The notes: generated from the sequence alone by a model not told the origin. A stretch of 64,000 bases of DNA from an uncultured Candidatus Saccharibacteria bacterium (GCA_964413715.1 CAYPSN010000001.1:10613-74612), one strand, 5' to 3'; counted from the stretch's first letter, positions 47,912-50,182 are shown. A program made the numbers and translations.

Positions 47912-47966
47912 TAAACGAAAAGGACCCCCGAACGAATCGGGGGTCCTTTCGTTCAGGGGTCGGGCG
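47912..47966. repeat. island repeat copy R1 (nested palindrome; terminator-like for the minus-strand gene at 47972)
   Basis: AACGAAAAGGACCCCCGAACGAATCGGGGGTCCTTTCGTTCAGGGGTCGGG: 13-bp stem AAAGGACCCCCGA/TCGGGGGTCCTTT with loop ACGAA. Confidence 0.8.
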
Positions 47967-47971
47967 GGCAG

Positions 47972-48415
47972 CTAGGGCCTGCGCTCCGGCTTCAACTCCA
48001 GATCGAGCTTGGCAAGCGAAGCTTCGACCAGCTCGAGACATGCAGCGCCGAAGCCCGTAATGGCGCGCAGCTCACTGGCGTCACGCTGTACGAGTTCGCC
48101 AACGGTGTTGATTCCTGCTCGTCGGAGGCATTCGGCCGTTCGAGTCTTCACTCCCTGCGTGAAGGGGACCCCCTCGAGCTTGATGTTCAGAAGGTCCTCG
48201 ATGTTCATCTTGAGAGTCTCGTGGCCTCGGCCAATGAACTCGGTGGTGATGTGCCTCTCTTCCACTCGGATTACGGCTCTCACTACGAGACCGTGGTATC
48301 GACCTTCCAGTGCCTCGATGTCATTCAAGGCGCTCAGGATTGCTAGGTGTTCTCCCGTAAGGCTGATTTCGACATCTGCCTTTTGGGGTACGACTTCGGA
48401 TCCGAAATCGGGCAT
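47972..48415 (-). CDS. island gene A: stand-alone RpoA C-terminal-fragment-like protein (end of alphaNTD + linker + alphaCTD double HhH)
   Basis: 147 aa. TAECLRRAGINTVGELVQRDASELRAITGFG..LELVEASLAKLDLELK aligns with actinobacterial RpoA alphaCTD ([37 protein letters not shown]). N-terminal 60 aa aligns with the last alphaNTD strand and linker. About 57% GC. Confidence 0.6.
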   Translation of the reverse strand: MPDFGSEVVPQKADVEISLTGEHLAILSALNDIEALEGRYHGLVVRAVIRVEERHITTEFIGRGHETLKMNIEDLLNIKLEGVPFTQGVKTRTAECLRRAGINTVGELVQRDASELRAITGFGAACLELVEASLAKLDLELKPERRP

Positions 48416-48476
48416 TGCAGTGGCCTTTTGTTCTCTGCGGGGCTACCGCAGCACATCCACGGTGGATGATTAGCAA

Positions 48477-48505
48477 ATAATATCACAAATATAGTAAAAA
48501 GTCAA
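48477..48505 (-). promoter_or_regulatory. promoter of island gene A: TTGACT-17-TATTAT (minus strand)
   Basis: The AT-rich 90-bp spacer contains near-consensus hexamers. The 5'UTR carries hairpin CUGCGGUAGCCCCGCAG and an AAAAGG SD. Confidence 0.5.
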
Positions 48506-48512
48506 TATCATT

Positions 48513-48563
48513 ATAACGAAAGGACCCCTGAACGAATCGGGGGCCTTTTCGTTCAGGGGTCGG
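48513..48563. repeat. island repeat copy R2
   Basis: ATAACGAAAGGACCCCTGAACGAATCGGGGGCCTTTTCGTTCAGGGGTCGG; 12-bp perfect arms CCCCTGAACGAA/TTCGTTCAGGGG plus an alternative overlapping stem. Confidence 0.8.
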
Positions 48564-48580
48564 TTTGATGGTGGGCCAGG

Positions 48581-48958
48581 TCAGCGGCTGAGGATGACCG
48601 TGCAGGATGGGTTGTCCTGGATCAGCCAGTCACCGTTGTACTGGACCAGCTTGCCATCACAGACCTTGCTGGTCTTGGAGCTGTCTGTCAAGGTGTAGCG
48701 CACGGACCTATTCCAGACCGAGAGCTCGACCACGTGGATCTTGTCGTAGTGCGACTCGACCTCCGTCGTGACACGGGCATCTTCCTTGGCCCGGCTCTCA
48801 TCCACGAGGTACATGCCATTGGCGAAGACCACGAAGATGACGGCCAGTACCCCGAAGGCGATGGCTGGCTTCCAGTGTTTCTTGGAGATCAGCAGGACAC
48901 CGGTGGCGACTGCGAGCACTCCCGCCATCATCAGTGCGACGATTACTTCTGCGCTCAT
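48581..48958 (-). CDS. island gene B: hypothetical two-TM membrane protein with about 70-aa extracytoplasmic Cys-containing C-domain
   Basis: 125 aa. GC3 about 80%. Perfect SD AAGGAGG 6 nt before the ATG. Confidence 0.55.
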   Translation of the reverse strand: MSAEVIVALMMAGVLAVATGVLLISKKHWKPAIAFGVLAVIFVVFANGMYLVDESRAKEDARVTTEVESHYDKIHVVELSVWNRSVRYTLTDSSKTSKVCDGKLVQYNGDWLIQDNPSCTVILSR

Positions 48959-49000
48959 GGCGCCTCCTTGTTCGGGGCCTCAGATTTAAGGCTGAAGGGT

Positions 49001-49038
49001 ATATTAGCATATTATGCAATAAAAGTAAATACATACAA
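49001..49038 (-). promoter_or_regulatory. promoter of island gene B (TTGTAT-18-TAATAT or TTTACT-17-TAATAT, minus strand)
   Basis: AT-rich spacer with two overlapping candidate hexamer pairs. Confidence 0.4.
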
Positions 49039-49051
49039 GGTTTTTTGTGTA

Positions 49052-49103
49052 ATAACGAAAAGACCCCCGAACGAATCGGGGGCCTCTTCGTTCGGGGGTC
49101 GGG
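49052..49103. repeat. island repeat copy R3
   Basis: AATAACGAAAAGACCCCCGAACGAATCGGGGGCCTCTTCGTTCGGGGGTCGGG. Confidence 0.8.
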
Positions 49104-49113
49104 TTGTGCCGGC

Positions 49114-49533
49114 TCAGCCGGAGGTGATGACCAGCTTGATGTCGGCGAAGGCGTAGGTCAGCGCCTGCTCGAACTCCAGGTCCTCGCCGATGCCGTGGCC
49201 GAAGTGCTCTCGAACGTCGACGGCTCGGATCACCTCGGTCTCCATGAGCACGCCCAGGGCGTGGTCGATGACCTGTGCCTTGAGCTTCTCCTGCGGATCG
49301 CTCCGCTTGGTGTCGATCAGGACCACACGGTTGTGCAGCTGGCTGAGCTTCTCGTGCTTCTCGTGGAGTCGGCCCTCGACGTTGATCACTGCATGTTCTG
49401 CAAGGATCTGGAAGCGCCCAGAGGTCACGATGGTCTGGATCTGGCCATCGTCACCCGTGAAGCGCAGGCTTCCGTCGGGCATGGTGGCCAAGAGGCCTAC
49501 CTGCAGGGCAGGCGTGGTTGCAGTTGCAGCCAT
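49114..49533 (-). CDS. island gene C: hypothetical soluble protein
   Basis: 139 aa. GC3 about 85%. SD GAAGGAG. No confident family; a weak epsilon-subunit-like GRFQILAEHAVI motif was considered and not trusted. Confidence 0.5.
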   Translation of the reverse strand: MAATATTPALQVGLLATMPDGSLRFTGDDGQIQTIVTSGRFQILAEHAVINVEGRLHEKHEKLSQLHNRVVLIDTKRSDPQEKLKAQVIDHALGVLMETEVIRAVDVREHFGHGIGEDLEFEQALTYAFADIKLVITSG

Positions 49534-49568
49534 GTCGGTTCTCCTTCGTGAGTGGATGACAGTACATA

Positions 49569-49597
49569 ATTATGCATGATTAATTCAAAAATGTCAA
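49569..49597 (-). promoter_or_regulatory. promoter of island gene C: TTGACA-17-CATAAT (minus strand)
   Basis: Consensus -35 and 17-nt spacer in an AT-rich spacer. Confidence 0.5.
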
Positions 49598-49620
49598 TAT
49601 TAAAGAGACATTTTCATTCT

Positions 49621-49672
49621 ATAACGAAAAGGCCCCCGAACGAATCGGGGGCCTTTCCGTTCAGGGGTCGTG
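49621..49672. repeat. island repeat copy R4
   Basis: ATAACGAAAAGGCCCCCGAACGAATCGGGGGCCTTTCCGTTCAGGGGTCG. Confidence 0.8.
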
Positions 49673-49687
49673 TTGTGAGGCCTGCCT

Positions 49688-50119
49688 CTAGCCGATCGGC
49701 TTGAGGCTCAGCCCGTGCTCGGCCAGCTTCTCCTTGACCAGGTCGAGGCTCTTCTGGCCGAAGTGCGTGATCGCGAGGAGGTCGTCCTCGGTCTTCTCGA
49801 CGAGCTGGCTGACGGTCTCGATCTGCGCACGACGTAGGTTGTTGCGGGTGCGGTCGACCTGGCTGTTGCCGGGGTCGGGGTGGCCGATGAGCTCCTCGAT
49901 GGTCATCTCCGGGGCCGGCCTCTGCCCGATGAACTCGATGCGCGACTTGTCGCCGATGAACTCGATGCTCGAGACCTGGGTCTCGATGCGCGCGCTGAGC
50001 TTGACGTCGGGGTAGTCCTCCGGGATGCGCAGGATGGCGGCCTTGGCCGCCAGGATCTGGTCCGTGGGGCCCGTCAAGACGAGCTCGGCGGAGATGCTGT
50101 TGGGTGCGGGGTCGGTCAT
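49688..50119 (-). CDS. island gene D: stand-alone actinobacterial-type RpoA C-terminal fragment (last alphaNTD strand + linker + alphaCTD)
   Basis: 143 aa. QVDRTRNNLRRAQIETVSQLVEKTEDDLLAITHFGQKSLDLVKEKLAEHGLSLK closely resembles actinobacterial RpoA CTD (..[47 protein letters not shown]), including the actinobacterial FGQKS signature. N-terminal TGPTDQILAAKAAIL resembles the last alphaNTD element. GC3 about 95%. Confidence 0.7.
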   Translation of the reverse strand: MTDPAPNSISAELVLTGPTDQILAAKAAILRIPEDYPDVKLSARIETQVSSIEFIGDKSRIEFIGQRPAPEMTIEELIGHPDPGNSQVDRTRNNLRRAQIETVSQLVEKTEDDLLAITHFGQKSLDLVKEKLAEHGLSLKPIG

Positions 50120-50182
50120 ATTTCCTCTTTCGTTGGGCGACCGGTTGCGTCCTTGTGGACGATTTTACAAGACGATTTTGCA

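Follow-up and report, generated by a model that had tools for sequence, protein, structure and literature searches.

A near-invariant terminator-like element at the 3' ends of exchanged gene cassettes beside hisS in Saccharibacteria

Introduction

Short palindromes at gene boundaries belong to several described bacterial systems. Bidirectional intrinsic (Rho-independent) terminators have a G+C-rich stem, a short loop and a 3' U-tract mirrored by a 5' A-tract, lie just past stop codons and between convergent genes, and show compensatory changes in their stems. Integrons hold small cassettes in a single orientation, mostly of unknown function, with a palindromic attC site at the boundary and a cassette content that varies among close relatives. 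Repetitive extragenic palindromes (REPs), bacterial interspersed mosaic elements (BIMEs) and other enterobacterial palindromes of 3' untranslated regions (3'UTRs) can influence termination and mRNA stability; the Xer-dependent pdif modules of Acinetobacter plasmids are small, carry short conserved palindromes and are shuffled without a linked recombinase; and the inverted pairs of DNA uptake sequences (DUS) of Neisseria and uptake signal sequences (USS) of Haemophilus are short conserved inverted repeats downstream of genes that double as terminators and promote exchange by transformation. Here we describe a palindromic element of ~60 nt that has likenesses to all of these. It is present in four copies in a 64,000-nt stretch of DNA (hereafter the window) from an uncultured Candidatus Saccharibacteria bacterium (GCA_964413715.1, CAYPSN010000001.1:10613-74612), one at the 3' end of each of four small genes that are arrayed beside hisS.

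Seen purely as a terminator, the element has nothing remarkable; the unusual part is the hot spot to which it belongs, where promoter-ORF-terminator cassettes (ORF, open reading frame) are gained, lost and replaced between close relatives. Our reading, held with moderate confidence, is that the element is a bidirectional Rho-independent terminator that forms the universal 3' module of the swapped cassettes and is also a homology patch for their exchange. We report its anatomy, position and conservation, the covariation of its inner stem, the variable content of the site and the positions of the junctions between variants as observed, and from these we infer that transcription stops at the element and that it is a preferred crossover substrate. 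An earlier description of the array or the element was not found in the literature searched, where the cassette-swapping hot spot likewise appears to be undescribed.

The element departs from each of its closest counterparts. Unlike ordinary terminators it is near-frozen (92% identity vs 77% for housekeeping DNA), is common to unrelated genes, has an additional upstream arm that allows a second, exclusive hairpin, and is confined to one array. pdif modules are bounded by 28-bp XerC/XerD sites (11-bp arms around a 6-bp center) in alternating orientation; the element has a G+C palindrome of 9/10-5-9/10 geometry between A/U tracts, and stands once per cassette and always in the direct orientation, so that by geometry it is not such a site. 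Uptake sequences are over-represented genome-wide, whereas the core and the full model of the element are found only in the array within the 64 kb. The comparisons with integrons and with dispersed repeats are taken up below.

Four copies of one element, each behind a cassette gene

A 57-nt repeat occurs in four direct copies (47913-47969, 48513-48569, 49052-49108 and 49621-49677; 77-91% identity to the reference copy), each 15-25 nt past the stop codon of one minus-strand ORF, A to D (Table 1). A preliminary description of the window had reported four related repeats, one per ORF of the island, with a common core and no further copies in the 64 kb, and it had placed them correctly to within a few bases. 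All of this holds: the copies are 85-91% alike, the 19-nt core CCCCCGAACGAATCGGGGG is present four times where shuffles predict 0.00, and searches of the window with an nhmmer profile and a covariance model find four sites only, at which extra plus-strand matches arise because the element is palindromic. Conservation runs ~8 nt further toward the ORF (CACAACCC) than was first described. Copy R1 stands between a convergent small-transmembrane (TM) gene on the plus strand and ORF A on the minus strand, and is therefore placed for action in both directions, and the U-tract of R2 stops 7 nt short of the -35 hexamer of the promoter P_A. The region at 47.9-50.3 kb is the sole extended GC-rich stretch of the window (0.55-0.67 vs 0.48 overall and ~0.48 in the flanks).

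Table 1. Features of the hisS-linked cassette array, in window coordinates (GC3, G+C content of third codon positions; CTD, C-terminal domain).
Feature	Coordinates	Strand	Description
Element copy R1	47906..47973	-	terminator of cassette A; nhmmer E 2.5e-19, covariance model
ORF A	47972..48415	-	147 aa; N-terminal domain + RNA polymerase alpha-CTD-like domain; GC3 0.67
Promoter P_A	48477..48505	-	TTGACT-17-TATTAT
Element copy R2	48506..48571	-	terminator of cassette B; nhmmer E 4.8e-21, covariance model
ORF B	48581..48958	-	125 aa; putative TM N-terminus + small C-terminal domain; GC3 0.83
Promoter P_B	49001..49029	-	TTTACT-17-TAATAT
Element copy R3	49045..49111	-	terminator of cassette C; nhmmer E 6.5e-21, covariance model
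ORF C	49114..49533	-	139 aa; orphan family; GC3 0.84
Promoter P_C	49569..49597	-	TTGACA-17-CATAAT
Element copy R4	49614..49681	-	terminator of cassette D; nhmmer E 1.4e-21, covariance model
ORF D	49688..50119	-	143 aa; N-terminal domain + alpha-CTD closest to actinobacterial RpoA; GC3 0.97
Claimed half-copy	50124..50146	-	5'UTR + Shine-Dalgarno region of D
Promoter P_D	50183..50211	-	TTGACA-17-TAATAT; divergent from hisS promoter

Two further resemblances in the preliminary description did not hold up. What had been taken for a degenerate right half of the element at the island edge matches the right-arm consensus at 13/20 positions, a score of 13-14/20 is reached by 14 other non-repeat sites in the window, and the sequence is not conserved among D orthologues; this is chance level, and the segment is the ribosome-binding region of gene D. 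The likeness of the Shine-Dalgarno regions of B and D to the left arm of the repeat is mildly raised in the window (scores of 7-11 vs a background of 4.9 +/- 1.4) and is lost in orthologous cassettes elsewhere (only 4-6), and we treat it as chance together with the purine-rich composition of such regions.

Two mutually exclusive hairpins share one U-tract

On the cassette mRNA the element reads X Y aag X Y' X' cuu Y' u, where X is GACCCCCGA, Y is ACGAA, and X' (UCGGGGGUC) and Y' (UUCGU) are the complements of X and Y. Its parts are an A-tract, a G+C stem of 9-10 bp, a 5-nt loop and a U-tract, plus the additional upstream arm. Two hairpins can be drawn: an inner one, in which Y-aag-X pairs with X'-cuu-Y' (17-18 bp, loop UUCGU), and an outer one, in which X-Y pairs with Y'-X' (12-14 bp, 12-nt loop). 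They are mutually exclusive, and the G+C stem of either directly precedes CUUUUCGUU. The G+C stem GGACCCCCGA/UCGGGGGUCC, the loop UUCGU and then CUUUUCGUU are present in all copies. The A-tract AACGAAAAGG pairs with CCUUUUCGUU; since it mirrors the U-tract, the plus strand likewise reads a hairpin and then a U-tract. Both hairpins are stable in all 16 of the distinct copies examined (inner -20 to -43, outer -24 to -31 kcal/mol), R2 having a perfect outer hairpin and one C.A mismatch in its inner hairpin. Fold z-scores of 81-nt windows are -4.6 to -5.7 on the minus strand and -3.7 to -4.2 on the plus strand.

Do the substitutions among copies preserve this pairing? When 19 copies were aligned to the model, the inner hairpin was 93% paired over 18 distinct copies and four of its pairs (15 cells) were altered on both sides, which gives a covariation of 0.165 vs 0.108 in shuffles (0 of 500 reach the observed value) and at most 0.076 with slid partners; as one T is out of register in some of the aligned copies, the value is an underestimate. 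Pairing in the outer hairpin reaches 96%, and a divergent copy in a more distant relative (L034, below) has two swapped pairs in the outer stem; this hairpin is conserved rather than demonstrated. All 19 copies retain both hairpin states. Variable positions cluster in the A/U-tract part, which is paired only in the inner hairpin, and the bases used in both helices are invariant, as overlapping structural constraints would predict. The loop and the upstream unpaired stretch are also conserved.

Every testable feature of a bidirectional intrinsic terminator is found in the element, in agreement with the terminator-like hairpin first proposed for the minus-strand transcripts: the G+C-rich hairpin is followed immediately by a U-rich tract on the transcript; a consensus terminator scan flags R1 (minus strand) and R2 and R3 (plus strand); the end of the U-tract lies 7-23 nt before the -35 hexamer of the next cassette, in addition to the constant distance from the stop codon; the stem of the inner hairpin shows compensatory substitutions; and R1 and the single elements of loci with only a D, a C or a B cassette sit between convergent genes. 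On these features the element is a probable terminator of the ordinary type with an unusual constancy of sequence.

One site with variable cassette content in related genomes

When 185,579 species genomes were scanned for the 19-nt core, 39 loci were found, most of which were set aside as unrelated terminators with the hairpin alone in common. The full element was found only in metagenome-assembled genomes of Saccharibacteria/Patescibacteria (loci L012, L013, L031 and L037), with a partial element in L034; further loci (L041-L057 and L059-L061) were added through protein look-ups of D and C homologues, and twelve related loci were compared (L012, L013, L031, L037, L043, L044, L048, L052, L056 and L059-L061). 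The search therefore did not reveal the scattered copies that a generic repeat would have: in the species-representative genomes with the extended element, exact-core copies are at a single locus. The extended element patterns had no match in the metagenome contigs of the JGI or the viral sequences scanned, and a single viral match to the bare core was discarded as a generic hairpin.

In the relatives the cassettes lie between hisS and the rhodanese/small-TM/macB genes, with one to four cassettes per locus. Read from the hisS side, the window holds D-C-B-A and L012 holds C-B-A'; L013 has a single B', L031, L048-51 and L056-57 have C, L037, L043, L044-47 and L059-61 have D, and L052-55 have C plus an unrelated cassette, X. 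The element ends every cassette ORF in the twelve loci (nhmmer E 1e-11 to 1e-21, with covariance-model scores as well), so that of the preliminary suggestion of a cassette-boundary or recombination site the boundary is strongly supported; a site-specific function is not, as there is no integrase nearby, no attC core, and some breakpoints lie outside the element (below).

Some minor observations were made on these loci. L034, from a more distant Saccharibacterium, encodes at 5245-5762 a membrane protein distantly like B (20% identity); the partial element follows this gene, which is at another locus (rnhB/yraN-nusA). L041 (4587-4808, a contig end) and L042 are an independent assembly of the same genome, broken inside cassette C just past R4; the repeats probably fragment short-read assemblies of the array. 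In L059 an extra ORF of 152 aa (2286-2744), of low complexity (E/A/Q-rich), lies between the D cassette and rhodanese in the opposite orientation, with a normal GC3 of 0.44.

Cassettes are exchanged, and sequence identity changes at their stop codons and promoters

The copies of the element have a mean identity of 92% (minimum 85%), and hisS DNA has a mean of 77%. Could copies within an array have been kept alike by concerted evolution? Identity is 0.918 within genomes and 0.922 between genomes; these are equal, so array homogenization was rejected as the main cause. At four-fold degenerate sites the D cassettes have an identity of 0.66 and the C cassettes one of 0.56 (composition expectation 0.43 and 0.35), vs 0.39-0.41 for hisS in the same genomes (expectation 0.26). 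Because the synonymous sites of the cassettes are more alike than those of hisS, the cassettes are younger than the genomes that carry them, and so have been exchanged horizontally. Their proteins evolve fast: identity is 0.65 for D and 0.61 for C vs 0.80-0.82 for HisRS.

The junctions are clearest among L013, L037, L044 and L052, whose flanks are mostly 85-100% identical and whose contents are, respectively, B, D, a 57%-identical allele of D, and C plus X. L013 and L037 are 100% identical across the end of the rhodanese gene and the entire element; identity collapses at the stop codon of the cassette and resumes at the -10/-35 region. The junctions of L052 follow the same pattern, with the rhodanese end and the element identical, loss of identity at the stop codon and its return at the promoter. 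In L037 and L044 the promoter and 5'UTR are ~99% identical up to the start codon, and the D ORFs that follow have an identity of 57% at the protein level and of 65% at four-fold sites; since the flanks are so alike and the ORFs so diverged, divergence in place is ruled out, which points to replacement of the allele by crossovers in the regulatory flanks. ORF A of the window and A' of L012 have a junction pattern like that of L037 and L044. The loss of identity at the stop codon and its recovery at the promoter or start codon indicate that the regulatory flanks are conserved while the payloads between them are swapped, for which homologous recombination is the simplest explanation.

The window and L012 provide the clearest recent exchange: their flanks are 55-85% identical and ORF A 52-70%, but the segment 48412-49575, which covers the 5'UTR and promoter of A, R2, B, R3, C and part of P_C, is 90-100% identical, and cassette D is absent from L012. 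Within this block the elements differ at 14/129 positions vs 44/1033 elsewhere (p = 0.004), a result on which we do not rely as R2 lies in an older, more divergent sub-block. An example of repeated sequence through which recombination could alter the number of cassettes is a 27-nt direct repeat at 49589-49616 and 50203-50230 (TGTCAATATTA...GACATTTT), made of the -35 hexamer and ~20 nt upstream of it in P_C and P_D; it brackets cassette D, exactly the segment that L012 lacks.

A proposed mechanism and its alternatives

The mechanism that we propose is as follows: Self-contained cassettes, each with its own sigma-70 promoter, 5'UTR, small ORF and terminator, are stacked head-to-tail at one hot spot, from hisS to rhodanese/macB, in one clade of Saccharibacteria. 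The proximal X:X' stem with its loop UUCGU and the following CUUUUCGUU would be the terminator proper, and the upstream XY arm could pair alternatively with Y'X' to form a second hairpin ahead of the same U-tract. With the 3' strand serving two helices as well as both DNA strands, most single substitutions should be harmful and the sequence would be near-frozen. The element would stop transcription both ways and insulate each cassette, and, being shared, would provide a 3' homology patch, 60-75 nt long and the same in every cassette. RecA-type homologous recombination could use this patch after DNA uptake, and also between copies in the array, with a second crossover in the promoter, the 5'UTR or the hisS flank, and cassettes would be replaced, added or deleted as a result. 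The element would then probably be a common splice point for cassette swaps between genomes. Saccharibacteria are naturally competent, and linear DNA is integrated by homologous recombination (PMC10633639).

Several points weigh against this reading. Termination at the element is deduced from its sequence, and the U-tract is interrupted (UUUUCGUU). Of the two exclusive stems of the preliminary description, both stand as stable structures in every copy and the inner one covaries, but the single double change in the outer stem is at the level of shuffles. With ~60 nt of 92%-identical sequence, the element would offer RecA a short substrate. In the exchange between the window and L012 the breakpoints are at the start codon of A, inside ORF B (~48710) and in P_C, and none is in an element; the element is therefore one homology patch among several and not an obligatory site, and the breakpoints are spread as homologous recombination would leave them, which a single fixed site would not do. 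Purifying selection on the terminator alone could in principle give the same junctions, since a variable sequence will always seem to end where a conserved one begins. Lastly, all of the relatives are metagenome contigs.

The last argument but one leads to the best of the alternatives, which we regard as possible though doubtful: the element would be a terminator only, insulating cassettes with no part in their turnover, and conserved by overlapping structural constraints together with the recent ancestry of the cassettes. At the junctions it would then simply be the first conserved sequence beside hypervariable ORFs. All the features of a terminator are indeed present, the recent breakpoints lie elsewhere, and the shared ancestry of the cassettes is more recent than that of the genomes, which alone would raise the identity of the element. 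This explanation has difficulty with the fact that unrelated cassette types (A/D, B, C and X) carry one and the same 60-nt sequence, which must therefore have spread together with, or between, cassettes, and with the excess of the identity of the element (0.92) over that of the cassettes at four-fold sites (0.56-0.66). Another terminator of the window, near 56000 and after the minus-strand gene at 56047-56622, has an A-tract, a CCCCC stem and a U-tract of the same general shape and an unrelated sequence. (That gene encodes a protein with a transglycosylase-like domain, PF06737, the Rpf-type domain typical of Actinobacteria, and its GC3 of 0.52 is normal.)

We consider it quite unlikely that the element is an attC-like site, recognized in its folded form by a recombinase encoded elsewhere (tyrosine or HUH-type) that moves the cassettes in the manner of an integron. 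Such a site could account for an array of same-orientation cassettes each ended by a conserved palindrome, for the rapid turnover of cassette content, for a 9-mer present three times (twice direct, once inverted) whose copies are candidate protein-binding sites, and for conservation at the level of sequence that includes the loop and the unpaired CACAACCC. However, no recombinase gene, and no adjacent intI, attI or Pc, was found within ~13 kb on either side of the array in the window or in the syntenic loci; the window flanks over this distance hold housekeeping genes of the Saccharibacterium (an ATP-binding cassette (ABC) transporter, rhodanese, HisRS, TypA, RelA/SpoT, RF1, PrmC and others). 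Inspection of all copies shows ends of CCYGAAC ... GTTAT/GTTTT in place of the GTTRRRY/RYYYAAC core (the R''/R' motifs of attC), and stems that are perfect or nearly so, with neither extrahelical bases nor conserved bulges. Integron cassettes are mostly promoterless and are expressed from Pc, and each cassette here has its own predicted near-consensus sigma-70 -35/-10 pair. The recent breakpoints are scattered as in homologous recombination, and the exchanged units vary (an ORF only, a 5'UTR plus ORF, or several cassettes). Given the lack of a nearby recombinase and of dispersed copies, the element is neither an integron attC site nor a REP nor a miniature inverted-repeat transposable element (MITE); the array is integron-like in outcome and not a member of the integron family.

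Might the two hairpins instead be two states of a regulatory RNA or DNA element that is bound by a factor, for example an alpha-CTD-like protein such as A or D, or an RNA-binding protein that affects mRNA stability? The retention of both states in every aligned copy, the conserved loop and upstream unpaired stretch, and the A-tracts that flank the stem would suit such a role, and alpha-CTDs bind A/T-rich minor grooves. We nevertheless judge it very unlikely: many loci with only a C or only a B cassette encode no alpha-CTD protein and keep the element unchanged, both hairpins end at the same U-tract with no apparent on/off outcome, and Rfam gave nothing at E <= 1 within 44000-54000.

A mobile non-autonomous repeat (MITE, REP/BIME or Correia-like) that landed after genes by chance, as the preliminary description had allowed, would also be palindromic and intergenic, but is effectively refuted: REPs exist in hundreds of dispersed copies with RAYT transposases, whereas the four copies in 64 kb are all in the array, exact-core copies in element-bearing species-representative genomes are at this locus only, plus one B-like gene elsewhere in L034, and the copies have no target-site duplications, their sides being a stop codon and a promoter at constant positions.

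If the element is indeed a universal homology arm for exchange by homologous recombination, then it shows how a competent episymbiont with a reduced genome can run integron-like shuffling without a dedicated recombinase. Different gene families at this site share one nearly invariant 60-nt 3' element. In practice the element is a marker, since searching with it retrieves the array and new cassette types, and genetic work on Saccharibacteria could use it as a compact two-way terminator.

The cassette genes

What do the cassettes encode? A and D are paralogues (33% identity) with Pfam matches to the alpha-CTD (E 4e-10 for A, 1e-13 for D), and the AlphaFold model of D agrees with the alpha-CTD fold. 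The best matches of the D domain among solved structures are mycobacterial RpoA proteins; the sole high-scoring sequence match checked (P0020, 69% identity) is an RpoA on a contig of 70% GC; and at the DNA level several Streptomyces strains have plasmid-borne rpoA paralogues that are 77-82% identical over ~90 nt to 49700-49791. An actinobacterial source of the D domain is likely from these matches. No rpoA was found in the window or the fetched loci. The N-terminus of B looks transmembrane, because its weak matches are all to membrane-protein families. Among 5.8 billion proteins, the C family has five clusters, B matches only itself, and the D family has seven clusters, all seven of which adjoin hisS. 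The AlphaFold model of C is unusable (predicted local distance difference test, pLDDT, 40), searches of PADLOC, PHROGs and NCBIfam yielded no function for A-D or X apart from the alpha-CTD, and tblastn against phages gave no matches for C and only alpha-CTD-like stretches for D.

The flanking genes have a GC3 of 0.45-0.52, vs 0.67-0.97 for the cassette ORFs of the window, and orthologous cassettes in other genomes have 0.70-0.92, the exception being the B' ORF of L013 (0.44, with an uncertain start). This very high GC3 is held across genomes whose hisS synonymous sites approach saturation, which suggests that some force, whether repeated import, selection or biased gene conversion, keeps the cassette ORFs GC-rich. 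Since they are fast-evolving, horizontally exchanged and actinobacterial-like in codon composition, and two carry an actinobacterial-type alpha-CTD, the cassettes are candidate genes of the interface between epibiont and host, which is largely uncharted. Saccharibacteria live on Actinobacteria, whose composition that of the cassettes (GC3 up to 0.97) resembles. A bolder proposal, and one that we think unlikely, is that the hisS array is an integrase-free functional analogue of an integron, a dedicated slot for expression in which the frozen terminator and strong promoters would be portable homology arms for the continual swapping of fast-evolving host-interaction genes among competent Saccharibacteria, and that A and D imitate the alpha-CTD of the host RNA polymerase and so interfere with host transcription factors.

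Three minor features of the region were noted. ORF D contains a 27-nt tandem duplication at 49926-49979 (CCGATGAACTCGATGCGCGACTTGTCG / CCGATGAACTCGATGCTCGAGACCTGG) that adds nine residues (IEFIGDKSR-IEFIGQ) in frame and is recent, as it is missing from all six D orthologues. The 5'UTR of D has on the minus strand at 50148-50161 a small hairpin, CGTCC-ACAA-GGACG, which reads CGCCC-AGAA-GGGCG in L037 and L044; these changes are compensatory, and the hairpin may be a 5' mRNA stabilizer or a regulatory stem. Outside the array, the window encodes at 43247-45031 a membrane protein of the DUF2207 family with a terminal run of ~10 glycines (GGGGGGGGGGGL) that is conserved in L012.

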